The notes beneath the pieces were generated by a model. The model saw only the letters and a program-made list of their open reading frames with translations, was not told the origin of the DNA and ran no database searches. Positions 16,206 through 39,917 of a stretch of 64,000 nucleotides of DNA are shown here, piece by piece. Position numbers and translations under genes: made by a program. The number at the start of each line of letters is the position of its first letter. Position 1 is the stretch's first letter. The stretch is taken from positions 742,747 through 806,746 of the forward strand of contig CAVQJN010000001.1 in assembly GCA_963712855.1 (NCBI GenBank), read 5' to 3'. The DNA is from Thermoanaerobaculia bacterium. GTDB taxonomy: Bacteria; Acidobacteriota; Thermoanaerobaculia; Multivoradales; JAGPDF01.

Positions 16206-16472
16206 ATGCGGAAGAGTCGGTACTCCGAGGAGCAGATCATTCGGGTGCTCCAGGAGGTCGAATCGGGCAAGACGGTTCGTGAGGTTTGCCGGGAGCATGG
16301 GATCGCGACCGGGACCTACTACGCCTGGAAGTCGAAGTTCGGCGGCATGGACGTCAACGAGGCGCGACGGCTCAAAGAGCTCGAGCTCGAGAATCGGCGT
16401 CTGAAGGCGGCGGTGGCGGACCTGACGCTCCGGGAGCAGGCACTGAAGGACGTGCTGTCAAGAAAATGGTGA
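16206..16472 (+). CDS. IS3-family transposase OrfA (HTH)
   Basis: 88 aa MRKSRYSEEQIIRVLQEVESGKTVREVCREHGI..YYAWKSKFGGMDVNEARRLKELE, typical IS3 OrfA with a leucine zipper. Confidence 0.85.
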   Translation: MRKSRYSEEQIIRVLQEVESGKTVREVCREHGIATGTYYAWKSKFGGMDVNEARRLKELELENRRLKAAVADLTLREQALKDVLSRKW

Positions 16473-20974: not shown

Positions 20975-22210
20975 CGAAAGGGTGCCAGGCGAATAGCTAG
21001 CCAAGCCCTTTCGGTATGGACGCATTCTCTCCTTTTGGGGGACCCACGTTGATCTCGTCCGTCTCGCGCAACGAGGCACATCGATCTCTAGGTACGGCCA
21101 AGGCGCCGAGAGACTCCTGACGGTCTCGAGAGCTCAACCTCGAAAGATCACACCCGCGCCCTTGCTGGGCCGCGACCCGCCTTGCTGCTGGCTCCGGACC
21201 TCTGTAGGCGAGCGAGTCTCTCTAGCTACGTCGCGGCCTGAACCCCGCGAAACGGCAAGGCCGGCGGGAAGCACCCTTGGGGAAATCCCACGTCGAGCTG
21301 ACCCGCGCGGAATCGCTCGGAGGAACGGCGGAAAGCCGCCAGGAAGGTCGCGTAGGCGTCGCGGACCTGCCTCCGAACCTGCCGCGAGTAGGCGTGGATC
21401 AGCGGAGCGGGCCCCTTCTTGATCCGGTTCGGCTCGAAGTGAGGATCCTGGCGCAGTACGAATGAACGGCCGGCAGCCGATCGCCCCGTCTCAGCCGCCT
21501 TCCGGGCGGTCTCCTGCTCGATGCCCTGGATCATCTCTGCGATTCGGCTCCGATACTGCTCGTCGTCGAGCCCGGCCCAACAGGGAATCGGGACGAGCTG
21601 GAGAGATTCCTCCTCGACCAGATCCCGCGGTTGGAGAGCGATCCCTTTGCGACTCGCCGTGTACTCGAGCGTATGGTTGATCCAACGACCGCGGACCGAC
21701 GATCCCGACAGGAGAAAGGGAGCCGCGTGGGCACCCGGCCATTCCTTGGGCGAGCGAACCAGGCCTTCCTTGGATCCGTGACCGAGGAGGTAATGCAAGC
21801 GTGCCACCTGGCTCGCTTCGTCGTCCGAGACGAGGATCGCCTGATACCTGCGTCCCCAGAACTTCTCGCGCCAGCGAATGAGCCGGCCCGCCTCACGGGC
21901 CAGATTCGAGTTGAGATAGCCCATGAAGGCGGCGAGGCGCTGTGCGTCGGGGACAGTGAGCAGAAGGTGGAAGTGATTGGAGAGAAAGGCGAAGGCATGA
22001 ACCCGCACCGGATAGAGGCGGGCTGCCCGTGCGAGAACGCCGAGCGTCAGGTCTCGGAGAATGGGGCTCGGCCGCAAGAGCAGACGCCCCTGAACCGTGC
22101 GACAGGTGACCTCGACGAGCGAGCCCGGCGGAACGAAGCGGATCCTTCGGCCCATGACACGCTCAACAGACGGAATCCAAGGCCCAGATTCCTCGCTAGT
22201 CGGGTGGCAC
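20975..22210 (-). mobile_element. Y1/HUH (IS200-like, COG1943/RAYT-like) transposase element, copy 1, with imperfect ~25-bp terminal inverted repeats
   Basis: Left terminus GCGAAAGGGTGCCAGGCGAATAGCTAGC versus right terminus (reverse complement) GAGAAAGGTGCCACCCGACTAGCG. It contains a single tnp gene, and the same termini recur as solo REP-like motifs. Confidence 0.65.
21226..22155 (-). CDS. Y1 HUH transposase (IS200/IS605-like TnpA domain with ~180-aa C-terminal extension)
   Basis: HUH motif SNHFHLLL, FMGYLNSNL, and catalytic-Tyr region KFWGRRYQAILV in the N-terminal ~130 aa. 309 aa in total. Confidence 0.7.
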   Translation of the reverse strand: MGRRIRFVPPGSLVEVTCRTVQGRLLLRPSPILRDLTLGVLARAARLYPVRVHAFAFLSNHFHLLLTVPDAQRLAAFMGYLNSNLAREAGRLIRWREKFWGRRYQAILVSDDEASQVARLHYLLGHGSKEGLVRSPKEWPGAHAAPFLLSGSSVRGRWINHTLEYTASRKGIALQPRDLVEEESLQLVPIPCWAGLDDEQYRSRIAEMIQGIEQETARKAAETGRSAAGRSFVLRQDPHFEPNRIKKGPAPLIHAYSRQVRRQVRDAYATFLAAFRRSSERFRAGQLDVGFPQGCFPPALPFRGVQAAT

Positions 22211-23066
22211 CTTTCTCTCCGAACCGCTCGGAGGAACGGCGGAAGGCCGCCAGGAAGGTCGCGTAGGCGTCGCGGAGCTGCCTCCGGACCTCCCGTGAGT
22301 GGGCGTGGATCAGCGGAGCCGGTCCCTTCTTGATCCGGTTCGGCTCGAAGTGAGGATCCTGGCGCAGTACGAATGAACGGCCGGCAACCGATCGCTTCGT
22401 CTCAGCCGCCTTGCGTGCGGCCTCCTGCTCGATTCCCTGGATCATCTCTGCGATTCGGCTCCGATACTGCTCGTCGTCGAGCCCGGCCCAACAGGGAATC
22501 GGGACGAGCTGGAGAGATTCCTCCTCGACCAGATCCCGCGGTTGGAGAGCGATCCCTTTGCGACTCGCCGTGTACTCGAGCGTATGGTTGATCCAACGAC
22601 CGCGGACCGACGATCCCGACAGGAGAAAGGGAGCCGCGTGGGCACCCGGCCATTCCTTGGGCGAGCGAACCAGGCCTTCCTTGGATCCGTGACCGAGGAG
22701 GTAATGCAAGCGTGCCACCTGGCTCGCTTCGTCGTCCGAGACGAGGATCGCCTGATACCTGCGTCCCCAGAACTTCTCGCGCCAGCGAATGAGCCGGCCC
22801 GCCTCACGGGCCAGGTTCGAGTTGAGATAGCCCATGAAGGCGGCGAGGCGCTGTGCGTCGGGGACGGTGAGCAGAAGGTGGAAGTGATTGGAGAGAAAGG
22901 CGAAGGCATGAACCCGCACCGGATAGAGGCGGGCTGCCCGTGCGAGAACGCCGAGCGTCAGGTCTCGGAGAATGGGGCTCGGCCGCAAGAGCAGACGCCC
23001 CTGAACCGTGCGACAGGTGACCTCGACGAGCGAGCCCGGCGGAACGAAGCGGATCCTTCGGCCCAT
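22047..23066 (-). CDS. Y1 HUH transposase, copy 2 (3' end replaced where copy 1 abuts; altered C-terminus)
   Basis: Protein identical to copy 1 over ~280 aa (one or two substitutions). Homology ends at 22211, where the 5' terminus of copy 1 begins, and the ORF reads on into copy 1 sequence. Confidence 0.6.
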   Translation of the reverse strand: MGRRIRFVPPGSLVEVTCRTVQGRLLLRPSPILRDLTLGVLARAARLYPVRVHAFAFLSNHFHLLLTVPDAQRLAAFMGYLNSNLAREAGRLIRWREKFWGRRYQAILVSDDEASQVARLHYLLGHGSKEGLVRSPKEWPGAHAAPFLLSGSSVRGRWINHTLEYTASRKGIALQPRDLVEEESLQLVPIPCWAGLDDEQYRSRIAEMIQGIEQEAARKAAETKRSVAGRSFVLRQDPHFEPNRIKKGPAPLIHAHSREVRRQLRDAYATFLAAFRRSSERFGEKGATRLARNLGLGFRLLSVSWAEGSASFRRARSSRSPVARFRGVCSCGRAPFSET

Positions 23067-23141
23067 GACACGCTCAACAGACGGAATCCAAGGCCCAGAT
23101 TCCTCGCTAGTCGGGTGGCACCTTTCTCCGGTGGTGGTCAA
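22211..23141 (-). mobile_element. Y1 transposase element copy 2 (3'-truncated, tandem to copy 1)
   Basis: Contains the same 5' terminus (22... ggtggcacctttctc at 23127-23141) and tnp gene. Its 3' ~90 bp and terminal repeat are missing. Confidence 0.6.
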
Positions 23142-24462
23142 CCAGCCGATCGACTTCTACCTCGACGAGGTCAGCCACCACAAGGGCATCTGCTCCAACT
23201 ACCCGAAGGGGAACGCGGACGACAAGCCGGATCTCCGGTTCACGTCGCCGGACGAAGGGGTCTTCAACCAGGCGATCGAGATCGACCCGAAAGATCCGAA
23301 CCACGCCTACCTCAAGGCGCCCGCGACCGAGGCCGACGTCACCATCGAGGCGACCGACACCGGCGCCTACGGCAAGTTCCGCGCCGAGGCGAAGACCCTG
23401 GGCCTCCTGAGCCTGGACGAGCGCACGGGCGAGAACTTCGTGCGCATCCCGATGGACGACGACAAGAATCACATCGCCGACGGATGGGCCAAGCGGCGCG
23501 GGGTCATGAACCTGCCGCCGACCTGGGACGAGGACGCGGCGCCCGCCGAGATGCCGCACAAGGGCGACAGCCTGACGCTCTACGAGGAATATCGCGGATT
23601 CGTCGTCGAGGATCCCCTGTCACAGCAAGCGCATTGGACGCGATTGGAAACCAAGCGTCGGAAGACCTTCGTTTATCCCAAGAACGGCCACGAGGACTGG
23701 ATCCGCGAAGGAGCGCGCCTGTTCGAGACGGTGACCGGCGTCCGCGTCTATTTCGTCCCGGGAGACGACTACGTGAAGCCCGACCCGGCGCTCGACAACG
23801 GGTTGAACTGGATCAACTTCAACTCGGACCTCAACGACGGCATCGACTTCGGTCCGAAAGTCGACATCATCCCCATCGTGAACACGCCCGGCTACGTCTC
23901 GGACGACCCGAAGCACCCGAAAGTCCACGTCTTCGGCCGCACCATGGCCGCGGGCGACAAGTACGGCGTGCAGGTCCCGGACGGCCCCTGGCAGCTCGAC
24001 GAGATCCAGATCTTTCCGCAGAAGATCACCGCCAGCATGAACGACGAGGAGAAGCTCTACAGCGATCTGGCGGCGGGACACGGGACGGCGCCGCACACCA
24101 AGGTGAACCTCGGTTACTACGGCGCCACCTTCCAGGACGTCGCGACCGACATCCAAAAGAACTTCGGCGCCATGGTGCACCAGCTCTATGTCTTCAGCAC
24201 GATGCACGAGATGGGACACGCCCTGGGCGCGCGCCACCACGACGAGGACCACCCGGAGATCGGCCCGCTCACCTGCCCGATGACCTACTGGTCGGGCCGC
24301 CGCGCCAACCTGCCTTTCTTCCTCGGGCGCTTCGACCCCGACAAGACCGCCTGGACCTTTCCCGCCTCCCCCGACGGATCCGACGACACCCCCGGCCCCG
24401 GCAACGCGTCCCCCTGGTCCTACTGCCAGACGAGCTGGAGCCAGATGAAGCTCAAGCCGTGA
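23141..24462 (+). pseudogene. 3' fragment of a paralogous metzincin-like protease gene, 5'-truncated by the Y1-element insertion
   Basis: Roughly 440 aa that are ~85-90% identical to residues ~375-816 of the 13118-15568 protein, including HEMGHALGARHHDEDHPEIGPLTCPMTYW. Homology starts exactly at the element boundary at 23141. Confidence 0.7.
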
Positions 24463-24576: not shown

Positions 24577-25545
24577 TCAGGGGGCAACGACGGTCGCCGA
24601 CCACCAGGAGGTGTCGCCACTCTCGAAGCCATCCGACATCAGGGGCGGGATGTAGAGATTGTAGAGCGAGTTCTCAATCATGGTCGCGTGGTCCTGGAAG
24701 AAGATCGCCCAGACGGAACCGGTGAACCAGACACCGAGCACGTGGGCGCTGCTCACCAGCACGGGCCCGGCCCTCGCCACGAAGACGACGGCGCCCGCTC
24801 GTCCGTTGAGCTCGGGGTGGTCGAGAAAGGTGGAGTTGCCGCTGTTCGTCCCCGCCGATGCGAAATGCTCGAAGCTCCACCCCAGCGAGCTGGCGATGTC
24901 CGGGGACTTCGCGATCAGGACGTTGAAGAACACTCCCGTGGGCATCAGGTCGAGGCAGCAGCTATCTGCGTTCTCGGTGACGATGGAGTAGCTGGGACTA
25001 CCGTAGACGATCGAGGAGTGGTGGTTGAACGACCCGCCAGGAATCCCCTCGAAGGTAGCGGTGTGGGTGTAGAGCATCAGCGTCGAGCTGGGACAGAGCA
25101 GACAGTCCGGATCGATCGGATTCAGCCGCGTCGCGCGGCCTGAGGTGTTGATGTCGTTCGATAGGTGGACGAAGGAGAGCGAATCGCCGCCCATCACGAG
25201 GACGTTGAACGCCGCGCCCACCGGAATCGCCGTGGCGTCCTCGTTGTAGATATACCAACTGCCGCCACCCGAGTAATTGGCGATGAAGACCACGCCGACC
25301 TCGTGGTCGTTGTAGACGCCAGAACCGAGCGGCGGATTCCAGTTCTGGGTGACCAGCAACCGCGCGTCCGGGTTGTCGTTGAGCTGCGGATGGTCGAGCT
25401 TCGTGTACTCGTCGTGGGACCCCGAGATGTTCGCGGCGGTTGCGACGTGCACGTACGAGACGAGACTCTCCCCGGCAACCGGCGCGACCGACAGGACCGA
25501 CAACGCCGCCAGGATCAGCCCGGCCAAACCCGCGTTAGCTTTCAT
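24577..25545 (-). CDS. Secreted protein with internal tandem duplication and C-terminal DGFESG..W motif
   Basis: Signal peptide MKANAGLAGLILAALSVLSVAPVAG; two related ~130-aa halves (LDHPQLNDNPDARLLV... / LDHPELNGRAGAVVFV...); C-terminus ...MSDGFESGDTSWWSATVVAP. Confidence 0.5.
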   Translation of the reverse strand: MKANAGLAGLILAALSVLSVAPVAGESLVSYVHVATAANISGSHDEYTKLDHPQLNDNPDARLLVTQNWNPPLGSGVYNDHEVGVVFIANYSGGGSWYIYNEDATAIPVGAAFNVLVMGGDSLSFVHLSNDINTSGRATRLNPIDPDCLLCPSSTLMLYTHTATFEGIPGGSFNHHSSIVYGSPSYSIVTENADSCCLDLMPTGVFFNVLIAKSPDIASSLGWSFEHFASAGTNSGNSTFLDHPELNGRAGAVVFVARAGPVLVSSAHVLGVWFTGSVWAIFFQDHATMIENSLYNLYIPPLMSDGFESGDTSWWSATVVAP

Positions 25546-25773
25546 CACTTGAACGAGGCCATTATCCCAATCGCCCGCCGGCCGTCCAATGGAGAGCTCC
25601 ACAAGTTTCCGCGCGCGCCTGCGAAGGCCACCGGGAAACTCTCGCCCGGGCCCACGCGCACCAGAACCGCGCCGGTCAACTGCGCAGAGGTACCAACCGA
25701 TTCGCAAATCTACTGGCATCAACTACTTGCCAATCGGCTAGCACCTTCTCCTTCTTCGCGGATCGCTGCGCGC

Positions 25774-26730
25774 CTACCTACTCGCCCGCGCTACCCTCTT
25801 CAGGATCGCCCGCCCCACGGTGGAGTCCGAGTAGTGTGGGAACTGCTCGAAGAACCGCTCAGATGCTGCCCCCGCCTCCTGGTGCCGGCCGAGTTTCCCC
25901 AGGCAGAGCGTTAGGCGGTCGAGGATCACGATGTCGGCGGCTCGGCGTTCTCGGGCGAGGTCTGCGACAAGGCCAGTCTCACACTCCATCGCCGAGTATT
26001 CGTACATCCTCTCAAGGGCGTCCAAGTACCGATGCACGGCTTCCTCCGGCCGCGACTTTTCGAGCGCGCGAGTGTCCTTCACGTCCTGCATGGTCCGGTT
26101 TCGCAGTCGGTGATACTCAGAGACCTTCGCTATGTCGATCTTGCGCGAGGGGGAGTCGTACCCGAGCAGCTCCGCCCCTTCGCGCACCAGCGAATCCCGC
26201 GTCTCGGCCTCGACGCGATACGCCTCGCCTTCGGTCAGGCCGGAGCGGACAATCTCAACATCGAATTGTCCATTCAGCCGCGATTCGACGTACTGCTTCC
26301 AGAACGGATTCCTTCGCTCGGTTGAGTATGCACGCCTGCCAGTTCCCTTGCCGACGTAGAACGCCCTCCCGCCAGAATCCTTGTGGACATAGACGTAGTA
26401 ATCCCTGCGGACGTTGCCCTGCGCGTCGAAAGTGACCGCCGAGGGGTCGCCGCTGAGCAGCGTGAACCGGACCCGGCCCACGAGCAACTCGCGGCTGAGA
26501 ATCGCCAAGAGGTCCTCGTGGGTTAGGTTTGGATTCTCCGCCAAGAGTTCACGGGCGCGTGCCACAGCTCGCTGCCCGAGGTCCTCATCGCTGGAGCGAT
26601 CCCCTTCCGCGCCGCCTAGGCTCTCGGCGCTCGAAGTGCTTTCGGTGGCCGTCTGTTCAGGCCGCTTCGCAGGTTCGGATTCCTGCTCGCCGTCCTTCGT
26701 CCTGAAGCGGAGCTTTGAGAACAGCCCCAT
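25774..26730 (-). CDS. GIY-YIG nuclease-family domain protein
   Basis: YYVYVHKDSGGRAFYVGKGTGRRAY...R...E matches the GIY-YIG motif. N-terminal acidic low-complexity region and a C-terminal helical region. Confidence 0.55.
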   Translation of the reverse strand: MGLFSKLRFRTKDGEQESEPAKRPEQTATESTSSAESLGGAEGDRSSDEDLGQRAVARARELLAENPNLTHEDLLAILSRELLVGRVRFTLLSGDPSAVTFDAQGNVRRDYYVYVHKDSGGRAFYVGKGTGRRAYSTERRNPFWKQYVESRLNGQFDVEIVRSGLTEGEAYRVEAETRDSLVREGAELLGYDSPSRKIDIAKVSEYHRLRNRTMQDVKDTRALEKSRPEEAVHRYLDALERMYEYSAMECETGLVADLARERRAADIVILDRLTLCLGKLGRHQEAGAASERFFEQFPHYSDSTVGRAILKRVARASR

Positions 26731-26852
26731 CGCGGCACCTCCGGGCCGAGGCTACCGCGCCCGACTGTCAGCTGCCGTCAGCGGCGCGGCCTGGAAGAAT
26801 CGAGTGCCACTCGGTTCCAGTGGGTTCAGACATCGAGCGCGCGGTCGTGCCT

Positions 26853-27482
26853 TCATCGCAGCCACGCCAGAGACGCGACTTCGTCAAATCGATCGACGTG
26901 ACGGCCGCAGCGCGGACAGCGGGTGACCCAGCCGGCGACCCCCTGCGCCGCGCGCCAGAAGGCGGGTGGTGCGCAGAACCAGTGCCACTCGAGCCGGGAT
27001 GGGAGGGTCAGGCAGGGCCAGCAGGGGCGTACCCGGGATCGCTGGCGGGCCCGCCGCTCCGCGGTCGGTTCGATGGGACGGACGACCCAGTCGGCGAGCG
27101 CATGCTCGGCGAGCCAGTCGTCGGGCACCAGCCGGCCGACTCGTTGCGGAAAGATGCGGACGAAGAAGGTGCCCGCGGCCCGGGTGGGGAGAAGGGCGTA
27201 GCCCGAGATCAGAGCCCGCGCTTGCGCTAGCCGGCGCGCTCGCACGATCAGAGAGCGAAAGCGCCGGGGCGACTGCGCGCCGCCGAAGTATGCGGTGTCG
27301 TCGTCGTGCACGAAGACGACGCCCGCGACGCCCGGCCGGCGGGCGAGCTCGCCCGCCGCCACGCGCAGGGCCTCCAGGTGGAGCTCGCGATCTCCTGGCA
27401 ACCGCACCTCCACGACAATCGCGTCCCCCGCGAGACGCCGGAAGTCGGCCGCGAGATCCTCGCTCAGCGGCCGGTTCGTCAA
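26853..27482 (-). CDS. Hypothetical protein with C-terminal CxxC zinc-ribbon-like motif, translationally coupled to the upstream AAA+ ATPase
   Basis: 209 aa. Its start codon overlaps the AAA+ gene stop (27479-27482). C-terminal C-W-P-C ... C-P-R-C-G arrangement. No recognised domain. Confidence 0.35.
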   Translation of the reverse strand: MTNRPLSEDLAADFRRLAGDAIVVEVRLPGDRELHLEALRVAAGELARRPGVAGVVFVHDDDTAYFGGAQSPRRFRSLIVRARRLAQARALISGYALLPTRAAGTFFVRIFPQRVGRLVPDDWLAEHALADWVVRPIEPTAERRARQRSRVRPCWPCLTLPSRLEWHWFCAPPAFWRAAQGVAGWVTRCPRCGRHVDRFDEVASLAWLR

Positions 27483-28862
27483 TCCGCCTCCTCCGCTGCG
27501 AGGAGGCCGAACCCCGCCGTTCGCCGCTCCGGCGCCCGGCCGACGAGATCCAGCGCGCAGAGCAGGTGGACTCGCAACACTTCGACGCGCTCCATCGCCT
27601 CGCCCTCACGCTCCAGCACCGCGGCGGCGATGGCGCCATTGGCGACCTCCTCGATCTGCGCCCCCGTCGAGCCGTCCAGTCGTTCGACCGCCCAGTCGAG
27701 GTCTTCGTCCGCGACGCCGACGTGGCGGAGCCGGTGGCCGAGCAGCCGCCGACGGGTCTCCGCGTCGGGGGGGCCGATTTCGAGGATCTGGTCGAAGCGC
27801 CCCGGCCGGTTGCGCACCGCCTCTTCCACCACCTCGAGCCGGTTGGTGGTAGCGATGGTCAGGATCGGCTGATCGCCGGCTGCCCCGTCGAGCTCGTTCA
27901 TCAGCGGCCCGAGCAGGTCGTTGCGGAAGCCGCGATCTCGGCTCTGCGCGATGAGGTCGAGGTCTTCGAGGAAGATCACGGTGGGCGCCAGCCAGCGGGC
28001 GATTTCGAAGACCTCGTGCACGTGGTCGGGCTTCTGCAGATCGGCGGGGGTCACCCAGAGAAAGGTGCAAGAGAGACTCTCCGCCAACTCGCGTCCGATC
28101 GAGCTCTTGCCAGTGCCGGGCGGGCCCGCCAGGATGAGGCCGGCACGGCGCCGCAGCCCGAGCCTCTGGGTGGCCGGGGAGGTGAAACGCCGGACCGCGA
28201 AGTCGAGGCGCTCGCGCAGGAGCCCGGGTAGGAAGAGCCGCTCGTCTTCGGAGCTTCCTGCGGCTCGGCGCCATGGTTCCGTCAGCGAGCAGCTTGCGGC
28301 CACGCAGCACGTTGTGCGCGCGCGTGAAGTCGAGCCAGTCCTCGAGCAGCTTCGGCTGGCGGTCGAGCTGCAGGGCGGCGATGCCGATCTCGTTGGGGCC
28401 GAAGCTCTCGGCCTCGAAGCGCACGACGCAGCGCTCGCGGTCACGTTCGAGGAAGAGCTGGAGGTTCTTCGGGATCTCGAGCCAGAGGCTCGGGTCGAGC
28501 CTGAGGCTCTCGAACTCGGGTGGCACGACCGAGGAGTTGCCGCGCGGCCCCTCTTCGAATCCGATCGCGCCGCGAATCCGCCACCCCTGGCTGTCGAGGA
28601 ACGCCTCGAGGGAGCTCCAGAGGAGCGCTGCGCGCAGCTTGCCGAAGAGCATGTAGAGCTTGATCGAGCCGTCGCTGCCGAGGAACTGCGAGGTCAGCCG
28701 GGTGAGCAGGCAGTCTTCCTCCTCGAAGCGGAGGAGCTTGAGGAACTCCTCGGAGCTGCGGCGATGGATCGGGGGCACGGGCTCCGCACCGGGCGGGATG
28801 GCGCGCAGGGCTTCGCGCCCGGCTTCGCGTTGCTCGTCAGGGATCTCGGGGATGGGTTGCAT
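27479..28862 (-). CDS. AAA+ ATPase (classic clade) with ~200-aa N-terminal domain; frameshifted near 28255-28270 in this assembly
   Basis: C-terminal half carries Walker A GPPGTGKS, Walker B IFLEDLDL, sensor-1 TTN and RNRPGRFDQ (arginine finger region). The N-terminal half (MQPIPEIPDEQ...KLLADG) is in the other frame (ORF 27606-28958). One gene with a 1-nt indel. Confidence 0.6.
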
Positions 28863-28942
28863 GGCGTTCTTCCTTTCGCCGCGCAAACTATCCGCCGACC
28901 TCAGACAAACCCTGTCCGACCGCTTGTGGGAGGATCTCCGTC

Positions 28943-29893
28943 GTGCCCCGGAGGACACTGCACCGCGCGGGCGATTTCCTCTCGCAGCCGGCCCGGCTAC
29001 TCGAGATCGACGCCCGCCTGCGCGCCGGCCGCCACCCGAGCCACGCCGAGCTGGCGAGCGAGCTCGGCGTCTCGGCCCGCACGATCCAGCGCGACTTCGA
29101 CTACCTCCGCTTCACCCTCGGCGCCCCCCTCGAATACGACGAGCGCCGCAAAGGCTGGAGCTACACGGAAGACACGTACTCCCTCCCCGCCGTCTATCTG
29201 ACGAACGACGACGTGCAGGCCCTCCTCCTGGTCCGCCAGGCGGTCGAGCAATACCAGGGCACCCCTTACGCCGCCGCCGCGCATCACGCCCTCGAGCTCA
29301 TGGAACGCGCCCTCCCCGCCCGCGAACGCCTCGCCGCAGAGTGGGTCAGCCAACGCGTCGCCTTCACCGACTTCCCCGCCGCCACCATCCGCCCGGCCGT
29401 CTGGAAGGCTGTGCTCGAGGGACTCCGCACCTCACACACCCTCGCTCTGACCTACCAACGCCCTGGCGCCAAGCCCCAACGGCGGCGCGTCGATCCCTAC
29501 GGGCTGATCGTTTCGGAAGGCGACTGGTATCTCTACACGTACTCGCACCACCACAAGGCGCGCCGAACGTTCTTGCTGGCGAGAATGAAGCGGGTCACGG
29601 TCCTGCAGGCGAGCTTCGACCTGCCGGAGGGCTTCTCGCTTGCGCGCTACGTGCACGAGGGCTTCGGTGGCTTACAGGCCGACGGCATGCGAGCGCGGTG
29701 GGTACGAATTACGTTCACCGAGAATGCGTCGCGGGTCGCCGCCGAGCGCAAATGGCATCCGGACCAGAGGATGAGCTGGGACACACGAAAGCGGCTTACG
29801 ATCGAGTTCGAGGTACGAGCGCCATTCCGCCTGGCGAGACGCCTGCTCGAGTGGGAGAACAGGATCGAAGCGCTCTCTTGGCACGCCGGATAG
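28943..29893 (+). CDS. WYL-domain transcriptional regulator (HTH-WYL-WCX architecture)
   Basis: N-terminal HTH (HAELASELGVSARTIQRDFDYL), central WYL domain (RVDPYGLIVSEGDWYLYTYSH) and a C-terminal WCX-like extension. Divergent from the AAA+ operon. Confidence 0.8.
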   Translation: MPRRTLHRAGDFLSQPARLLEIDARLRAGRHPSHAELASELGVSARTIQRDFDYLRFTLGAPLEYDERRKGWSYTEDTYSLPAVYLTNDDVQALLLVRQAVEQYQGTPYAAAAHHALELMERALPARERLAAEWVSQRVAFTDFPAATIRPAVWKAVLEGLRTSHTLALTYQRPGAKPQRRRVDPYGLIVSEGDWYLYTYSHHHKARRTFLLARMKRVTVLQASFDLPEGFSLARYVHEGFGGLQADGMRARWVRITFTENASRVAAERKWHPDQRMSWDTRKRLTIEFEVRAPFRLARRLLEWENRIEALSWHAG

Positions 29894-29984
29894 AGAGACA
29901 GGCGCCCCGGCCTGAAGCAAACTCTAGAATCGAACACACATGCGTCGACAGCTGTGAGCAGAGACTCAAGGAGAGAGAGTTCAA

Positions 29985-31028
29985 ATGCGATACATCGGAG
30001 TCGATCTTACGTCCGGTCTCGTTGACCACCCCAGGCCAGTAGACCTGGCAATCATCGAAGACAATAATGTGGAGTTTCAGCAGTGGGACTGGCCACAAGA
30101 TCAGCAAGTGATATTCAATGCTGGACCCGCGCTGGCCAACCACTTCCTGCAGAACATCGACTGGAATCCAGACGAGATGCGGCTCGCGATTGACGGCCCT
30201 CAAGCTCTCGCGACGATAGGGCATTTTGTGCGGATTGCTGAACTGGAGCTCGCAACTCCGGGCCGGACACCCGACGAAATGCCTCTCCTTGATCGACCAT
30301 TTGGCAGCTACATCCAATCCAGCATCTTCCTCTTCCGAGCACTACTGGCTTTCGGCGAGCGCATTTGCCTCCCGAACAATGCCAATCACTTGGACGCTTC
30401 GCTCTATGAAATATTTCCAGGCAGTGAGTGGCAAGTGCTCTTTGGCCGCCGACTTCCGAAGAAGGCCTCAAGAGCCGGTCGAGAGGCTAGGGCCACGCTC
30501 TTCCGCCAACTTGGACTCGATCTTCCACATCTGCTGCCATCTGCCGACCAGAACGATGCGCTGATTGGCGCATGTCTCCTTCGGTGGGCCGAACACGAAC
30601 CGCAGCGCGTCCGATTAGTTGGGGAGGTAGCTCAGGAGAACCCCCTGCGAGAAGGATTCATCCTTCATTCAGCCCGACGGGCGAATGAGCTGGACCGTGA
30701 AGACGTTGAGGTGGCAGAACCTGCCGACATGGAGGTTCCGGATTGGGCAGCAGACGTGCACTACATCAGATTCACAGACAACGGATGTGTCTGGCGGAAG
30801 CCGCCAGAGAATCGGTGGCTGGAAATCGGAGTAACGTACACATTGGAGGCCTGTGGCCAACATTTCACGCTCTCCCCACTCGGCGGCGACGTGGCATGGG
30901 GGTGCGACCCAACGGTCCAGGCGCTACTCGGTCAGCTCGGGATCGCGCCGATTCCTCAGCATCTGAGTGCTGCGAACTCGATCAGTGTTGCTGTTGCCGT
31001 GATCAATGAAGAGGAGGCTGGTGGGTGA
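29985..31028 (+). CDS. Predicted RNase H-like fold protein (DUF429-like)
   Basis: N-terminus MRYIGVDLTSG...VDLAIIED and a later ...ADQNDALIGACLL resemble the carboxylate-bearing strands and helix of RNase H-like/DUF429 proteins. Low-GC segment. This is a weak assignment. Confidence 0.4.
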   Translation: MRYIGVDLTSGLVDHPRPVDLAIIEDNNVEFQQWDWPQDQQVIFNAGPALANHFLQNIDWNPDEMRLAIDGPQALATIGHFVRIAELELATPGRTPDEMPLLDRPFGSYIQSSIFLFRALLAFGERICLPNNANHLDASLYEIFPGSEWQVLFGRRLPKKASRAGREARATLFRQLGLDLPHLLPSADQNDALIGACLLRWAEHEPQRVRLVGEVAQENPLREGFILHSARRANELDREDVEVAEPADMEVPDWAADVHYIRFTDNGCVWRKPPENRWLEIGVTYTLEACGQHFTLSPLGGDVAWGCDPTVQALLGQLGIAPIPQHLSAANSISVAVAVINEEEAGG

Positions 31029-31228: not shown

Positions 31229-34200
31229 ATGAATAGGCAGCCGGGGTCATCTCAGTCCGTCCGTGTTCTCCTGATTCTGCTGATAGCGTTCGTCGGATCG
31301 CAGACAGCAGCGAGATCCGACCCGCCTCAGTTGTATGCGTTCACAGGCGATCCTACGCCCCTCGGGACTCGCACTCCCTTGATCCTGATTCATGGTCTTC
31401 AACCGAATTGCGACGAGACATACGAAGGAGTCTGGGCAAACTTCGTGTGGAACGAGTGGGCGAACAACGTCGAACTCCGACAGAAGACAAAAGTGTACCT
31501 ATTGAGGTACGAAACCGTCCAAGGAAAACTGGCATCCGGCGACCCTACAAACGTTGCATCTGTGGCTACAGCTCTCGGTGAGCAACTGGAGTCGAGTCAA
31601 CAATTCCCTGAGTTCTCGGGAAAGGACTTTCTCTTAGTCGCGCACTCCTTGGGTGGTCTAGTCGCCAGGTCCTTCATGCAGCAATTCCGATTCTCTGATG
31701 GAACTCTGGGGGGGGCCCGAGTCCTCAGGCTGATTACTTTAGCCACTCCACACCATGGCAGCCCAATTGCCAACATAGCTGAAGGCTACCCATCGGTCTG
31801 GTGCCTCACTCCTAGCAACGGATTTCTTCAAGACCTTTCATGGGATGCGTACGATGGCTTCCTCTTCCTCTTGGATCCGTGCAACCCCTGGTTAGGAAGC
31901 TTGAATATCAGCGGAGGCGCGCCCTCATATGCCACTCAAGCGTGCGCATATCAGGACGTACCTGGAGAAGATGGTGAGTTCTCGAAAATCTTCGCCTACG
32001 GCGGCGAGACGACACCTCTCGCTGCCACGCTCGATTTCGTTCTCTCGAATTCACTATTGAATGCGCGCGGATACGAGCACAATGACGGTCTAGTGCCGCT
32101 TGGTAGCGCTCTATTCGACGGGGTATCCCTTGGCGCCAAACGCACGGTAATCGCTCCCTGTAACCATGGCCAGATCGTTGGTGGATCGTGCAGCGTCATC
32201 TATGACAACGGAGATATTGCCAGTGTCTTTGACGCGGTGGCCAATGATCTGCTAGCAGCGCTTAACGAGGATCCAACACCAGTCATCATGTCGGTAAGCC
32301 CCAGCGTCTTGGCAACTGAGCCACTTCCTCAGACACAGCGTTTGACGATTTCAGGGAGTGATTTTGCGCCTGACGCCACTCTGACGTTCTTTGACGGAAG
32401 TTCCCACTATGTGGGGCGATCTCCCATTCCGCCAGTACAGCCTAACCAACTTCAATACGACATTGCTGCGGGCCCGTACGAAGGTGCTTGGACTGTCCAG
32501 GTGGTTAACGGCACGAAGGCTTCGAACGAATTTCCGTTCTGGGTTGTCGACACGCCGGGCAACGACGACACAGCACCACCCGCACCGATCGACCCACAGA
32601 TGTCACCAGCATCCTGGGGCAACCCAATTCTCTTCTACCTCGACTGGGCGAATCCAGCCGATCCCTCTGGAGTCACCAAAGTCTGGTGGAAGTGGGACAG
32701 CCCGCCCACATTTCAGGGTGACGGCATTGGACTTGCCCTCCCACTCTTCAAACCGCTCCCCGTTGCACCTGTCACAGAGGGTGCGCGAACGATCTATTTC
32801 TGGCTTGAGGATGGGAGTGGAAACTCCGATTTCCACAACTGGGCCAGTGCCACCGCTTACTACGATGTAACTGCGCCGTCGCTCTCGATTGACGAGAGTC
32901 CGGACGGTTCCCCCATTCAGATCGCCAGCAGCCAGCTGATCTTGCACGGGTCGGCCACGGACAACCTCAGCGGCGTCGGTGGCATTAGCTGGATGAGCAA
33001 CCGCGGTGGTACAGGAGGCGCAACGGGGACAACCAACTGGTCAACGTCATCGATCCTGCTTGCTCCAGGCGACAACGTGATCACTGTCTCAGCCACTGAC
33101 CGCGCGGGCAACTCGGCATCCGAATCGCTTACCGTGACCTCGACCGCCCAGCCATCGGCCTGCGGTCCCTGGGAGTGGGACTCACCAGTGTCGAACGTGG
33201 CGAGCGCCGCTGCCTATGGGGATGGCAAGTGGGTGGCAGTCGGCTACAGCGGTGCGATCTGGACGAGTCCGGATGGGGTCACTTGGACTCCGCAGACGAG
33301 CTCAGTGGCCCAGAGCCTCAACGACGTCATCTGGACCGGCAGTCAGTTTATGGCGGTCGGTAACAACGACACGATCCTGACCAGCCCGGATGGGGTGAAC
33401 TGGCAGGTCGTGAGGTCCTCATCGGTCTTTAACTACTACGGCGTGGCCTGGAACGGATCGCAGTATGTGCTCGTGGGTCGTGGGGCCTCCCCGACAACGA
33501 CGAGCCGGGGTTGGATGTGGACGAGCTCGGACGGCGCGGTCTGGACACAACGCTTCTACGACCCTGACACCAACTACAGATCACCGATCTGGAGCGGGAC
33601 GTTGTTCGCCCTGCTCGACAACAAGGGCAACGTCTACACCAGCCCGGACGGCGCCAACTGGACCAGCCAAAACATCTCGGCCACGGGATTGAACGACGTC
33701 GCCTGGAGTGGCACCGAGTACCTCATCACCCAGGGCACCACCGTCTACACCAGCCCCGACGCCGTCACCTGGACTCCTCACTCCATCACTCCTTCGCTCA
33801 GCCACGTGATCTGGGCCGGCAACCGCTTCGTAGCAACCAGCGGTCCTCAGATCTGGTCGAGTGCGGACGGGCTGAGCTGGACATTGGAGACCACCGACGG
33901 CAATGGCGACATCAACGACCTTGCCTGGAGTGGCAACCAAGCCATCGCGGTCAGTGGTGGAGAGTCCTTCTGGAGGCAGAGCTGCACGCTTCCCGCTGCG
34001 GATTTCCGCTTCAGTCCGGCTACACCGTTGCGCAACCAGCCGGTCGCCTTCTTCGACCAGTCCACCGCTAGTCCGACGGCCTGGAGCTGGGACTTCGGCG
34101 ACGGCCAGGGAAGCTCGCAGCAGGATCCGACCCACACCTATGGCCAAGGTGGCGTCTACTCGGTGAGCCTCGCCGCGACCAACGCCTTCGGCACGGACAG

Positions 34201-37200
34201 CACCCAGCAGCAGATCACCGTCTCGCTACCGACCAGCCCGTGCAGCCCCTGGGAGTGGGACGCCCCGGTGGCGAGCCCGGTCAACGCGGCGACCTACGGC
34301 AATGGCCAGTGGGTGGCGGTGGGCAATTCCGGATGGATCGGGACGAGCCCGGATGGGGTGACCTGGACGCAGCAGACGAGTCCGGTCACGACCAAGCTGC
34401 TCGATGTCATCTGGACGGGCAGCCAGTACATGGCAGTCGGCTTCGCCGGCACGATCCTGACGAGCCCGGACGGAGTCACTTGGCAAGCCAGCAACAGCAT
34501 CTCCGGCGTTTACGACCTCTATAGCGTAGTCTGGAGCGGCTCACAGTACCTGCTCGTGGGAAGACTCCCGAGCACCACGAGGAGCTATGTTTGGACGAGC
34601 TCGGACGGTCACGTCTGGGCCCAACGTCTCTATGGACCTGACACCACGTACCTCCATCCGATCTGGAGTGGGACGCTCTTCGTCCTGCTCGACAACAAGG
34701 GCAACGTCTCCACCAGTCCGACGGGCGCGAACTGGACGACCCAGAACATCTCGGCCAGCGGATTGAACGAAGTGGCTTGGAGCGGCACCGAGTACCTGAT
34801 CACCCAGTGGACCACGGTCTACACCAGCCCCGACGCCGTCACCTGGACTCCTCACTCCATCACTCCTTCGCTCAGCCACGTGATCTGGGCTGGCAACCGC
34901 TTCATTGCCGCCGGAGGAACCGGGACGACACAGATCTTCTCCAGTCCCGATGGACTCAACTGGACCTTGGAGACCACCGACGGTAATGGCGGCATCAACG
35001 ACTTGGCTTGGAGTGGCAATCAAGCCGTGGCGGGTGCAGGAGCTTCTTTCTGGACCCAGAGCTGCACAATTCCGACAGCCGACTTCCGCTTCAATCCGGC
35101 AGCACCTCTACGCAACCAACCTGTCGCCTTCTTCGACCTCTCCAGCGCCAATCCAACGTCATGGAGCTGGGACTTTGGTGACGGCCAGGGGAAGCTCCCA
35201 GCAGGATCCGACCCACACCTATGGCCAAGGTGGCGTCTACTCGGTGAGCCTCGCCGCGACCAACGCCTTCGGCACGGACAGCACCCAGCAGCAGATCACC
35301 GTCTCGCTACCGACCAGCCCGTGCAGCCCCTGGGAGTGGGACGCCCCGGTGGCGAGCCCGGTCAACGCGGCGACCTACGGCAATGGCCAGTGGGTGGCGG
35401 TGGGCAATTCCGGATGGATCGGGACGAGCCCGGATGGGGTGACCTGGACGCAGCAGACGAGTCCGGTCACGACCAAGCTGCTCGATGTCATCTGGACGGG
35501 CAGCCAGTACATGGCAGTCGGCTTCGCCGGCACGATCCTGACGAGCCCGGACGGAGTCACTTGGCAAGCCAGCAACAGCATCTCCGGCGTCTACGACCTC
35601 TATAGCGTGGTCTGGAGCGGCTCACAGTACCTGCTCGTGGGAAGACTCCCGAGCACCACGAGGAGCTATGTTTGGACGAGCTCGGACGGTCACGTCTGGG
35701 CCCAACGTCTCTATGGACCTGACACCACGTACCTCCATCCGATCTGGAGTGGGACGCTCTTCGTCCTGCTCGACAACAAGGGCAACGTCTCCACCAGTCC
35801 GACGGGCGCGAACTGGACGACCCAGAACATCTCGGCCAGCGGATTGAACGAAGTGGCTTGGAGCGGCACCGAGTACCTGATCACCCAGTGGACCACGGTC
35901 TACACCAGCCCCGACGCCGTCACCTGGACTCCTCACTCCATCACTCCTTCGCTCAGCCACGTGATCTGGGCTGGCAACCGCTTCATTGCCGCCGGAGGAA
36001 CCGGGACGACACAGATCTTCTCCAGTCCCGATGGACTCAACTGGACCTTGGAGACCACCGACGGTAATGGCGGCATCAACGACTTGGCTTGGAGTGGCAA
36101 TCAAGCCGTGGCGGGTGCAGGAGCTTCTTTCTGGACCCAGAGCTGCACAATTCCGACAGCCGACTTCCGCTTCAATCCGGCAGCACCTCTACGCAACCAA
36201 CCTGTCGCCTTCTTCGACCTCTCCAGCGCCAATCCAACGTCATGGAGCTGGGACTTTGGTGACGGCCAGGGGAGCTCCCAGCAGGATCCGACCCACACCT
36301 ATGGCCAAGGTGGCGTCTACTCGGTGAGCCTCGCCGCGACCAACGCCTTCGGCACGGACAGCACCCAGCAGCAGATCACCGTCTCGCTACCGACCAGCCC
36401 GTGCAGCCCCTGGGAGTGGGACGCCCCGGTGGCGAGCCCGGTCAACGCGGCGACCTACGGCAATGGCCAGTGGGTGGCGGTGGGCAATTCCGGATGGATC
36501 GGGACGAGCCCGGATGGGGTGACCTGGACGCAGCAGACGAGTCCGGTCACGACCAAGCTGCTCGATGTCATCTGGACGGGCAGCCAGTACATGGCAGTCG
36601 GCTTCGCCGGCACGATCCTGACGAGCCCGGACGGAGTCACTTGGCAAGCCAGCAACAGCATCTCCGGCGTCTACGACCTCTATAGCGTGGTCTGGAGCGG
36701 CTCACAGTACCTGCTCGTGGGAAGACTCCCGAGCACCACGAGGAGCTATGTTTGGACGAGCTCGGACGGTCACGTCTGGGCCCAACGTCTCTATGGACCT
36801 GACACCACGTACCTCCATCCGATCTGGAGTGGGACGCTCTTCGTCCTGCTCGACAACAAGGGCAACGTCTCCACCAGTCCGACGGGCGCGAACTGGACGA
36901 CCCAGAACATCTCGGCCAGCGGATTGAACGAAGTGGCTTGGAGCGGCACCGAGTACCTGATCACCCAGTGGACCACGGTCTACACCAGCCCCGACGCCGT
37001 CACCTGGACTCCTCACTCCATCACTCCTTCGCTCAGCCACGTGATCTGGGCTGGCAACCGCTTCATTGCCGCCGGAGGAACCGGGACGACACAGATCTTC
37101 TCCAGTCCCGATGGACTCAACTGGACCTTGGAGACCACCGACGGTAATGGCGGCATCAACGACTTGGCTTGGAGTGGCAAGGAGTTGGTTGCCGGAGGAG

Positions 37201-38381
37201 GCGCTGGCGCAATCGGAACGCAGGGCTGCAACGATGCTGTGGATCTCCAGGTCACTGGGCCCTCGGTGAGCTCCACCTCTCCAGAACCCGGTTCAGATCT
37301 TGTCGTCTACATGACCGCCTCGAACCTCGGCACAGATCCCAGCAATGCAACTACGCTGGTTTACTACCGCTCATCGGATGCCGTGATCTCCTCCGCCGAT
37401 ACGGAGATCGGTCAGGACTCGATCTCCAGCTTGGCCGGTGGGGCGAGCTCTCCACAGAATCTGCAGACAACTGCCCCGAGCAGCGACGGGACGTACTGGT
37501 TTGGAGCCTGCATCCTGCCAACTGGCGATGAGTCCAATGTATCCAACAATTGTTCGACCGGAGTTGAGGTTGATGTGGTGTCCCACCCCGACCTCGTCGT
37601 CATTGACCCGTCAGTCGACAACGCGGCCCCAGCACAGGGACAGCAGATCACTATCCACGCGACCGCCAAGAATTCAGGAATCGCCGCATCAGCTGCGACA
37701 AACCTCACTTACTACCTCTCCCCGGACCCGACAATCACTTCTGGCGACACGTCGCTCGGTCAGAAATCCGTCCCAGCGCTGTCGCCAAATGGCACCTATC
37801 CGGACAGCCTTCAGACTACTGCGCCGCCCGCCACAGGCAACTATTGGCTTGGCGCATGCGTTCAGTCTGTCAGTGGTGAGACCAATGTCTCCAACAACTG
37901 TTCGACCGGCGTGGAGATTCAAGTTGGGCCCGCTTGCACAGACGATGAATTCGAGCTCCTCGGGAGCGACAACTCTGATGACACCTGCTACGGCGCCAGC
38001 GTCGTGCCAGGAGTCGCGCAGCAACATCTTCACTGCGACGAAGACTGGGTTCGCTTCGTGCCAGATGCAGGAGCTACCTACCGCATCGAGACTTCATCCC
38101 TAACTGGTGGAGCCGACACAACACTCGCGCTACACCAAGACTGTGGTCAGCAGCAGTTGGCGTTCAACGACAACTTCACAGGCCTCGCATCACGAATCGA
38201 CTGGACCGCTACAGGTACCGCGCCGATCGATATCAGAATCCAAGAAAGGGCCGGTACTTACGCAACTGGGGAGGGCTACACCATCTCCGTGTCTTGCATC
38301 GCCGGATGCGCGCCCGTCCCAATCTTCGCCGACGGCTTCGAGGACGGCACTCTTTGCGCATGGTCGAACGGAGGATGCTAG
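31229..38381 (+). CDS. Giant secreted multidomain protein: alpha/beta-hydrolase (lipase-like) + Ig-like domains + 4x [BNR/Asp-box beta-propeller + PKD] + 2x CARDB + PPC-like C-terminal domain; single frameshift near 35192
   Basis: Signal peptide; ILIHGL...VAHSLGGLVAR (GxSxG serine hydrolase). Repeated YG(D/N)G(K/Q)WVAVG...TSPDGVTWT (SxDxGxTW Asp-boxes) blocks, each followed by PKD (WDFGDGQ...THTYGQGGVYSVSLAATNAFG). CARDB-like segments at 37230-37900. C-terminus ...IFADGFEDGTLCAWSNGGC. ORFs 31229-35605 and 34905-38381 differ by a 1-nt insertion (GGGGAAGCT versus GGGGAGCT in the other copies). Confidence 0.75.
34221..37180 (+). repeat. Near-perfect tandem repeat, unit 1080/1081 bp, ~2.7 copies (preceded by a more diverged copy from ~33150)
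   Basis: The same >100-nt strings recur at 34264, 35345 and 36425 (offsets 1081 and 1080). Each unit encodes one beta-propeller plus PKD module. Confidence 0.9.
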
Positions 38382-38657: not shown

Positions 38658-39917
38658 GTGCCCCTCGCACCGAGACCCTTCATGTCATCTCTTCTTCAGA
38701 CTGAGCTCGCCTCGCGACACCTGTGCAATGCTTGCATTGTTGACCGACAGTTCCTAAGGGGCACCCTCCAGCAGCAGCGAGCTAAAGCTCGACATGCACT
38801 CCAACTGGTCGATCTCTACTGTGGAGCCGGGGGACTCTCTCTGGGAGCCGCGATTGCGGCGCGGCGCTACGCCACTAACGTCGACGTGCGTCTAGCCGCC
38901 GACTCGTGGCAGCCAGCCATCGACGTTTATTGCAGCAATTTCGAGATTGAGCAGGCACGAGTCGCCGCGGTAGAGGATCTCTTCGATGGCGAGCTTGGCT
39001 CTACCCGCCGAACTCGAAGTGAGAGAGCGCTACGCGACAGTGTCGGTCCGGTCGGTCTTCTGGTTGGTGGTCCGCCCTGCCAGGGATACTCGGATCTCAA
39101 CAACCACAGCCGCCGGCGTGATCCCAGGAATCGCCTGTATGCCCGAATGGCGAGGGCCGCAGAGGTCCTGACGCCCAAGGTGATCGTGATCGAAAACGTG
39201 CCAGCTGTTATCCACGACGACGAGAACGTCGTCGCCGTCACGAGCTCGGCGCTCGATGACGCTGGCTACGATGTAATGGGACAAGTCTTCGACATGAGCG
39301 CACTTGGCTTGCCCCAGACTCGCAGACGCCATCTGCTCCTTGGAGTCCAGCGAGGTTTGGGCAGGGCGAGAGTCATGCTCGACGCCATCGCCCCAAACTG
39401 CCCTGTCCACCAGCCAAGAACTGTTCGGTGGGCGATCGAGGATCTCGCAAGGCTGGTGCCGAAGAGTCTCTTCGACCAGCCCAGCCGCAACAGTAGAGAG
39501 AACTCCGCGCGCATCCAATGGCTCATGACCCATGACGCATACGATCTGCCCAATCGAATGAGGCCGCGCTGCCACCGCGGTGAGCATTCCTACAAATCGA
39601 TGTACGGGCGCCTTCGCTGGGACGCGCCTGCGCAGACGATCACGACAGGTTTCGGATCGATGGGACAGGGGCGATACGTGCATCCGAGCGAGGCCCGGAC
39701 GATCACACCGCATGAAGCGGCGCGTCTCCAGTCGTTCCCGGATAGCTTCTCGTTCGCGGCGGCACCCAACCGTGGCGCTCTCGCCCAATTGATCGGCAAC
39801 GCCGTTCCCCCACTCTTCGCCGCTGCCGTGATCTCCACCATCCTCTCGACGCTATTTCCCGGGTCGGCTCGCCGCATCACACGCCGCCCCCCCCAAGGCA
39901 CCGCACGCAATGGCTAA
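38658..39917 (+). CDS. dcm: DNA (cytosine-5)-methyltransferase
   Basis: Motif I LYCGAGGLS, motif IV GGPPCQGYS, motif VI ENV, motif X QLIGNAVPP. 419 aa. Confidence 0.9.
   Translation: MPLAPRPFMSSLLQTELASRHLCNACIVDRQFLRGTLQQQRAKARHALQLVDLYCGAGGLSLGAAIAARRYATNVDVRLAADSWQPAIDVYCSNFEIEQARVAAVEDLFDGELGSTRRTRSERALRDSVGPVGLLVGGPPCQGYSDLNNHSRRRDPRNRLYARMARAAEVLTPKVIVIENVPAVIHDDENVVAVTSSALDDAGYDVMGQVFDMSALGLPQTRRRHLLLGVQRGLGRARVMLDAIAPNCPVHQPRTVRWAIEDLARLVPKSLFDQPSRNSRENSARIQWLMTHDAYDLPNRMRPRCHRGEHSYKSMYGRLRWDAPAQTITTGFGSMGQGRYVHPSEARTITPHEAARLQSFPDSFSFAAAPNRGALAQLIGNAVPPLFAAAVISTILSTLFPGSARRITRRPPQGTARNG

Follow-up and report, generated by a model that had tools for sequence, protein, structure and literature searches.

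A conserved gene pair of a WYL regulator and an atypical AAA ATPase, flanked by unrelated cargo in a mobile and defence island of a Thermoanaerobaculia bacterium

The segment at positions 25774–31028 of a 64,000-nucleotide stretch of DNA from a Thermoanaerobaculia bacterium (the whole stretch being referred to below as the window) contains five open reading frames (ORFs), which code for a WYL transcription regulator, an AAA ATPase, a 209-residue protein with Cys motifs, a 347-residue RNase H-like protein and a 318-residue protein with a GIY-YIG-like motif. All five are present with the boundaries given in an initial annotation, which had grouped them as one defence-type module. Our analysis supports a different picture: the segment is a mosaic, in which a conserved two-gene cassette of regulator and ATPase resides in an island and is flanked by unrelated cargo, and only these two genes recur in the loci L001, L083, L085, L095 and more than 30 further ones. 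Overall, the evidence leans towards a two-gene core with a WYL-controlled switch or adaptor ATPase, the remaining genes being cargo.

Results

Genomic neighbourhoods were gathered in three ways, that is, by exact look-up of homologues, by a metagenome scan with family-specific segments, and with local hidden Markov models of the ATPase N-domain and of the WYL protein; loci were dereplicated at 90% ATPase identity. A strong match to the N-domain is found in 58 loci, 38 of which contain an adjoining WYL gene, with 15 being too short upstream to judge and five being informative negatives. The WYL gene is therefore adjacent in 38 of the 43 informative loci, and in 22 of 27 once dereplicated. The two genes are divergent in 19 of the adjacent loci, and the WYL gene directly precedes the ATPase gene on the same strand, often with an overlap, in 15, follows it on that strand in three and is convergent with it in one; the dereplicated set shows the same four gene orders (ten, eight, three and one loci, respectively). 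That the genes stay adjacent although their order changes argues strongly that they form a functional pair. Where the ATPases are 53–62% identical the WYL orthologues are 60–68% identical, and where the ATPases are 31–37% identical the WYL orthologues are 27–30% identical: the two genes are inherited together and diverge in parallel. Named homologues come from Thermoanaerobaculia and Planctomycetota, and the cassette is widespread in uncultured bacteria of the Acidobacteriota and Planctomycetota type. A scan of genome contigs with the Walker A and RNRPGRFD patterns of the AAA+ alignment yielded generic AAA genes only, and a literature search for the WYL–AAA pair found no description in the searched library. 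One Planctomycetota metagenome-assembled genome (L086, 7001–9761) carries two paralogous N-domain ATPases in tandem with no WYL gene nearby, and may represent a hetero-oligomeric variant.

The regulator has the HTH-WYL-WCX layout (HTH, helix-turn-helix) that the initial annotation had assigned to it. The WYL domain is matched above cut-off by Pfam (PF13280, E-value 5.3e-17, residues 154–220), Pfam also matches an N-terminal winged HTH at residues 17–118 (HTH_11, 7.9e-6; HTH_PafC, 2e-4), and the PADLOC WYL model (8e-38) covers residues 17–306. Residues 16–311 of 316 align to DriD (8tp8), and the alignment to 9pfq likewise reaches residue 311, which indicates that the WCX domain is present. In comparisons with PDB sequences, the regulator is about equidistant from PafB/PafC, BrxR and CapW. 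The divergent WYL/ATPase intergenic regions of the window, L001, L083 and L095 share a palindrome, GACA-N5-TGTC, whose position is conserved. It reads GGACAGGGTTTGTC in the window, where this sequence occurs exactly once, GGACAGGGCTTGTCC in L083 and TGACATGCCATGTCA in L095, and the ribosome-binding site GAAAGGAG ahead of the ATPase start is likewise conserved in the divergent clade. A scan for sigma-70 promoters gave no site in the intergenic region of the window. The palindrome is a good candidate operator, to which the WYL protein is predicted to bind.

That the second core gene codes for an AAA+ ATPase with an N-domain of about 200 residues holds true, and both parts are conserved; the initial annotation had overlooked that its ORF is interrupted by a frameshift, to which we return below. 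The protein matches Pfam AAA (3.8e-23), its homologues (437–466 residues) are uninterrupted and cover 92–95% of the repaired window sequence, and searches with the family profile retrieve VAT and p97 (D1/D2) at about 1e-87. Walker A (GPPGTGK) and the arginine fingers are present, with G246, P248, G249, G251, K252, R352 and R355 being invariant. A six-residue gap, on the other hand, is aligned exactly to the pore loops of VAT (KYYG/KWVG; SKYYGQ and SKWVGE), and among the 109 members surveyed, 97 of the 98 that could be scored lack an aromatic-hydrophobic-Gly motif between Walker A and Walker B. The Walker B motif ends in ED, not DE, in all 109 members (E299 and D300 being invariant), and 108 of them carry a hydrophobic-Gly-Phe motif at a median distance of three residues from the C-terminus. 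The N-domain has no match in Pfam, PADLOC or PHROG; its structural model (predicted local distance difference test score 92) is of the α+β type and resembles generic α+β folds only. Given the loss of pore loop 1, the ED of Walker B, the N-domain private to the family and the hydrophobic-Gly-Phe tail, the protein is, judging from its sequence, probably an oligomeric switch or adaptor that depends on ATP and docks through its tail, rather than a threading unfoldase. The C-terminal motif resembles the IGF loop of ClpX, and a ClpX-like role in feeding ClpP was considered; it was set aside since the deletion of pore loop 1 speaks against threading. An ATPase without this loop likewise does not make a demonstrated unit of the 'ATPase plus nuclease' combination on which the proposed module had been built.

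In the window, the N-domain frame of the ATPase gene starts with ATG at 28862 and runs into nonsense after ...LLADGTMAPSRR near 28255, while the AAA frame resumes at ...SSEDERLFLPG and ends at 27479. The closest homologue (L001) reads LAPRRESAEDSKLFLP across the junction, and the junction that the homologues imply is ...APSRR-SSEDERLF.... Taken together with the uninterrupted homologues, this indicates that a single extra base splits the gene, which has GGAAGCTCC where GGAGCTCC is expected. Programmed frameshifting was rejected, as all homologues are uninterrupted. The identical change from GGAGCTCC to GGAAGCTCC is found at 35190 in the gene of a giant adhesin, where the repeat at 35168–35200 is altered from GGGGAGCTCC to GGGGAAGCTCC and the frame is lost, such that ORF 31229–35605 is split from ORF 34905–38381. 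The near-identical paralogous repeat at 36249–36280 reads GGGGAGCTCC in frame (compare also 34088–34120). Since the same change splits the adhesin gene while the paralogous copy is intact, an assembly error that recurs at GGAGCTCC is a likely cause of the frameshift in the ATPase gene; that katG is in three pieces in a related long-read assembly from ENA is a sign of systematic indel errors. GAGCTC, however, is intact at 90 other sites, so that the effect is not universal, and the insertion may be a real mutation that inactivates the gene; both points count against an assembly error. A third GGAAGCTCC is found in the window at 62555.

If the ATPase gene were truly frameshifted, the window copy would be a decaying remnant and the cassette non-functional in this organism. 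The one-nucleotide insertion itself, the public record, which holds only a 274-residue product of the gene, and the abundance of insertion sequence (IS) elements in the region would be in line with this. It is nevertheless decidedly unlikely, given that both halves of the gene retain a strong coding signature (G+C content at third codon positions, GC3, of 0.87–0.91) and no other lesion, and given the parallel breaks in the adhesin repeat and in katG. The 274-residue 'ATP-binding protein' of the public record is thus probably one half of a 460-residue protein split by an assembly error.

The initial annotation had described the ATPase and 209-residue genes as a two-gene operon. Within the window this stands: the 209-residue ORF is coding (GC3 0.84), and its TTG start overlaps the stop codon of the ATPase gene (TTGA), so that it is probably co-translated with the ATPase. 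The pair is not conserved elsewhere, and the 209-residue protein has no full-length relative among 5.8 billion clustered proteins or 1.84 billion representatives; its N-terminal 140 residues have none at all in the same searches. Residues ~142–203 form a CxxC...CxxC zinc ribbon with 33 remote relatives, and the C-terminal ~60 residues read CWPC...W..F...GW.TRCPRCG...D.F (window 26853–27060). The ribbon belongs to an apparently undescribed module (consensus C-P-x-C...L-x-W-F-Y-F...G-R-A-G-W-M-T-x-C-x-x-C...D-F-F-x-E; P0156–P0188), which has weak Pfam matches to DZR only and caps otherwise differing proteins, including proteins with FHA or Mrr_N domains and membrane-anchored (transmembrane) ones, in up to five tandem copies.

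What follows the ATPase gene is a variable slot. A co-directional ORF within 150 nucleotides of the ATPase stop is present in about 12 of 31 loci, with several overlapping or abutting the stop, and these ORFs belong to at least ten unrelated families, among them DUF8426/PADLOC PDC-S02 (1.4e-86), a second paralogous ATPase, and TPR, TM2 and metallophosphatase proteins. None of the 209-residue, 347-residue and GIY-like genes recurs in the closest cassettes (L001, L083, L085 and L095). In a distant clade (L087, 9388–10140; L089, 9141–9572; L148; L162), a gene with a DSPc-like, that is, dual-specificity phosphatase fold is conserved ~0.9–1.4 kb downstream of the ATPase gene, being a third conserved gene in this clade. 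The gene between the two is variable and PD-(D/E)XK-like, namely PDC-S02/DUF8426 in L087 and a phrog_29029-like 172-residue protein in L089.

The genes at the two ends of the segment are best described as independent island cargo. As had been noted initially, the gene for the 347-residue protein is low in GC and its product RNase H-like: its GC content is 57.5% and its GC3 0.60, compared with 0.84–0.91 in its neighbours (0.85 for the adjacent WYL gene), and although the protein has no Pfam match at E≤0.1, PF04250 (DUF429) is carried by 12 of its 23 homologues (35–48% identity). Relatives also occur in loci without the cassette, that is, beside a cluster of SMC_N, DUF6361 and helicase genes (L093) and among toxin-antitoxin genes (L094). 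In L001, the orthologous WYL gene has a different DUF429 gene (1.3e-6) behind it, and in L085 a Cas4-like DUF2779 gene; that a nuclease recurs beside the regulator is thus possible on the strength of three loci. Comparison with hhalign of the 347-residue family with the L001 DUF429 protein and with a 256-residue protein of L083 was not significant, which limits a recurrent link between WYL and DUF429 to two loci. For the 318-residue protein, a YVYV...FYVGKG motif is visible in the sequence, and the assignment to the GIY-YIG family could not be confirmed: neither the whole protein nor residues 98–208 has a Pfam match even at E≤5, a PDB sequence match was likewise not obtained, and the matches to PADLOC PD-T4-3 (0.026), phrog_5356 (3e-4) and phrog_314, a homing endonuclease (0.039), are weak.

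The window constitutes an island of mobile and defence genes, as the placement of the segment in an accessory region had implied: it holds IS elements and a class 2 DISARM-type set of C5 methylase, DrmB, DrmA, NERD/UvrD-like helicase and DrmE (Table 1). The segment itself, in agreement with the initial annotation, comprises no system that can be named, with neither PADLOC nor NCBIfam matching one. Just outside the segment are genes for a DUF7452 protein (24577–25722; 2.3e-45, three repeats) and for a 484-residue protein with a zinc-metalloprotease-like HEMGH motif and no family match (23008–24462), both with native GC3.

Table 1. Features of the segment and of the surrounding island, in window coordinates
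Feature	Position	Strand	Basis and remarks
HTH-WYL-WCX transcription regulator	28943–29893	+	Core gene 1 of the cassette; Pfam, PADLOC, DriD (8tp8) alignment
Atypical classical-clade AAA ATPase, ~460 residues, novel ~200-residue N-domain	27479–28862	-	Core gene 2; 1-nucleotide insertion in the assembly
Divergent promoter region between WYL and AAA+ genes	28863–28942	.	Sequence, and conserved GAAAGGAG ribosome-binding site before the AAA+ start
Candidate WYL operator GGACAGGGTTTGTC, GACA-N5-TGTC palindrome	28904–28917	.	~45 nucleotides upstream of the AAA+ start codon
Frameshift site in ATPase gene, GGAAGCTCC on the coding strand	28250–28258	-	Homologues imply GGAGCTCC; three-frame translation, L001 homologue
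209-residue orphan, C-terminal C4 zinc ribbon	26853–27482	-	Coupled to the AAA+ gene; variable slot behind the ATPase
347-residue DUF429-family protein, RuvC-like RNase H fold	29985–31028	+	Separately acquired neighbour, outside the cassette
318-residue protein with GIY-YIG-like motif (YYVYVHKDSGGRAFYVGKG)	25774–26730	-	Neighbour, family unconfirmed
rve/IS3-type integrase IS gene	16286–17353		Upstream of the IS200-like genes
IS200-like Y1-transposase ORFs, overlapping, nearly identical	21226–22155 and 22047–23141		Tandem duplication or assembly artefact
C5 cytosine methylase, class 2 DISARM-type set	38658–39917		Not on the minus strand, unlike the other DISARM genes; PF00145, 5e-47
DrmB	40363–42189	-	6e-74
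DrmA	42135–45419	-	3e-210
NERD/UvrD-like helicase	45416–47182	-	
DrmE	47170–50421	-	DrmE_C, 1.7e-10

Across the family, the cassette has mixed surroundings. Among 147 neighbouring ORFs scanned in 38 dereplicated loci there are defence-type neighbours, namely type I methylase and specificity subunits, PDC-M57B, PDC-S02, PDC-S44, mad2/3/5, CARF-PD-(D/E)XK, Cas4-like and HEC-07 proteins, along with housekeeping-type ones, namely PolA, DnaB, TopA, DnaJ, CoaE, transporters and secretion ATPases. The initial annotation had held that a consistently housekeeping context would speak against its module, and such a context is found in part: the cassette lies among DnaB, NusA and IF2 genes in L087 and among Obg and L27 genes in L089, and a WYL-less branch of the ATPase family resides in replication and recombination modules of phages. 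The locus with the layout closest to the window (L083, 9784–11418) lies in an apparent conjugative or defence island with PhdYeFM/PIN toxin-antitoxin genes, a HEC-07-like protein (PADLOC, 1.4e-28), TrbL and a DEAD/ResIII helicase.

The WYL-less branch is low in GC, exhibits the same architecture and is found on 23 IMG/VR contigs, with E-values down to 1e-140 for the full profile and, the N-domain being weakly similar, down to 1e-13 for the latter. It retains the ED Walker B motif and the C-terminal Gly-Phe motif (L175–L199; L198, 10001–11320), and in large uncultured phages its ATPase gene belongs to the syntenic core, beside genes for RuvC, RecA, SbcCD-like, sigma70_r4 and MJ0330_N/intein proteins and homing endonucleases. 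No member of the ATPase family was found in collections of plasmids and of cultured phages, also when these were searched with the N-domain by tblastn.

Discussion

PafBC, DriD, BrxR and CapW are WYL regulators that act via a nucleic-acid-type ligand. By analogy, we propose that the WYL protein of the cassette would bind the palindrome and, upon such a ligand, control the ATPase gene together with the gene coupled behind it, which in the window is that of the 209-residue zinc-ribbon protein. The ATPase might then assemble as an ATP-dependent oligomeric switch or adaptor, which would engage its target by the N-domain and a partner by the C-terminal tail, no protein being threaded; the output would most likely be a response to stress or infection.

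Several points weigh against this proposal. Five informative loci (L002, L086, L107, L113 and L134) are devoid of a WYL gene, as is the entire phage-borne branch, so that the ATPase can work without the regulator. The ED Walker B motif and the absent pore loop could equally mean that the protein is a largely inactive scaffold. Operator binding, the ligand, oligomerization and the molecule to which the C-terminal tail docks are inferred, and the sample of loci is metagenomic, often truncated and skewed to a few sediment and peat studies.

Among the alternatives, it is very improbable that all five genes constitute a single WYL-controlled anti-phage system in which the ATPase drives or licenses nucleases. 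Their contiguity in an island beside class 2 DISARM, the translational coupling of the 209-residue gene to the ATPase gene, and the DUF429 and Cas4-like DUF2779 genes behind the orthologous WYL genes of L001 and L085 might suggest so; yet none of the three accessory genes recurs in related cassettes, the 347-residue gene has a foreign GC3 and relatives that stand alone, the identity of the GIY-YIG protein is unconfirmed, PADLOC recognizes no system, and the palindrome is confined to the region between the WYL and AAA+ genes. A further alternative takes the cassette for a module of DNA damage or replication stress resembling the PafBC and DriD regulons, and not for an immune one, with a WYL protein that would sense single-stranded DNA (ssDNA) and induce an ATPase acting on proteins of DNA metabolism. 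We consider this somewhat unlikely, even though the regulator lies at the same distance from PafB/PafC and DriD as it does from BrxR and CapW, several cassettes are located among DnaB, NusA, IF2, Obg, PolA and TopA genes, and the WYL-less phage branch is syntenic with RuvC, RecA and SbcCD-like genes. The cassette varies in position between related genomes and showed no association with genes of the recA or lexA type, and its immediate neighbours are often nuclease or defence candidates (PDC-S02, 1e-86; HEC-07, 1e-28; DUF2779/Cas4-like; DUF429; mad2/3/5; CARF-PDDEXK).

The cassette might also be a portable two-gene regulatory unit, following the logic of BrxR, CapW and CapH/CapP, which controls whatever cargo is inserted and in which the ATPase serves as co-regulator or anti-repressor of the WYL protein. 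The unrelated families of genes in the slot, with nuclease-like and defence-candidate proteins among them, would be explained in this way, and regulator and ATPase co-evolve as physical partners would. More than half of the informative loci, however, have no tightly coupled downstream gene, the phage branch possesses the ATPase without the regulator, and no WYL regulator is known to need an ATPase partner, which renders such a unit unlikely. Returning to the WYL-controlled switch or adaptor, it is tempting to extend it to a previously undescribed and widespread sensor-switch module, in which the WYL protein would detect nucleic acid arising from infection or damage and the ATPase devoid of its pore loop would assemble on ATP and recruit or activate interchangeable slot effectors (the zinc-ribbon protein, the PD-(D/E)XK/PDC-S02 protein, the phosphatase and the TPR proteins) via tail and N-domain, phages having their own WYL-less copy of the ATPase; taken as a whole, this extension is speculative and rather improbable. 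A role of the cassette in defence is possible: a part in conflict is favoured by neighbours that are variable and rich in nucleases and by the changing location in the genome, and a part in DNA metabolism by the housekeeping surroundings and by phage copies that lie next to recombination genes.

Should the pairing prove functional, it would define a new family of modules under WYL control, in which the constant partner is neither a nuclease nor a known defence operon but a classical AAA ATPase minus the threading loop and plus a docking tail. WYL regulation could then be studied with a defined, co-evolving output gene, the catalogue of domains would gain an uncharacterized N-domain and a zinc ribbon, and there would be an explanation for a core gene in one lineage of large uncultured phages. 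For annotation, the lesson is not to file the five genes as one system; for experiment, the unusual ATPase makes the cassette a reasonable target.

Comparison with known systems

With the unfoldases of the classical clade (VAT, p97/Cdc48, PAN and FtsH), the ATPase shares Walker A, sensor 1, the arginine fingers and the lid, and it differs from them by the deletion of pore loop 1, the ED Walker B motif, a single AAA domain, the private N-domain and the hydrophobic-Gly-Phe tail. The best PADLOC matches of its AAA domain are IetA (5e-19) of the IetAS system and TRIP13 (3e-8) of CBASS Cap6-TRIP13, which pertain to the generic AAA domain only. The score for NCBIfam IteA_antiphage (69 bits) is far below the cut-off of 510, neither an IetS protease (subtilase) nor a HORMA partner is encoded among the flanking ORFs, and the N-domain is unrelated. 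As for the flanking genes, the model of the 347-residue protein matches the RuvC, MOC1 and Cce1 resolvases, with the acidic catalytic residues being invariant; in comparison with DUF429/RuvC-like nucleases of the RNase H fold, the protein is below Pfam detection and has an extra C-terminal β-domain of ~90 residues. The 318-residue protein shares a GIY...YVG-like motif with single-gene defence proteins of the PD-T4-3/GIY-YIG type, but its match to PD-T4-3 spans only 28 residues (110–137; E-value 0.026) and its C-terminal half is unrelated.

The regulator finds its best PDB sequence matches in PafBC of Actinobacteria (PafB, 2.3e-8) and, over residues 16–311, in DriD of Caulobacter. Both are ssDNA-sensing WYL activators of the DNA-damage response, and actinobacterial PafBC is associated genomically with an AAA ATPase system, the pup-proteasome locus. 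In contrast to PafBC, the cassette contains no proteasome, Pup or N-domains of the Mpa/ARC type, and its regulator is a single chain rather than a PafB–PafC tandem. BrxR and CapW, the regulators of BREX and CBASS, exhibit the same HTH-WYL-WCX architecture as the window regulator at remote sequence similarity (2.5e-6 and 5.6e-4), and they likewise head, or diverge from, their presumed target genes with a palindromic site in the promoter region. The window regulator is not placed directly upstream of a recognized defence operon in the manner of BrxR and CapW: the AAA+, 209-residue and 347-residue proteins match no PADLOC system, and DISARM is located ~9 kb away, past the adhesin gene. Unlike BrxR and CapW, the cassette regulator thus has as its partner no known defence operon but one specific, co-evolving ATPase, with which it is co-transcribed in many loci.

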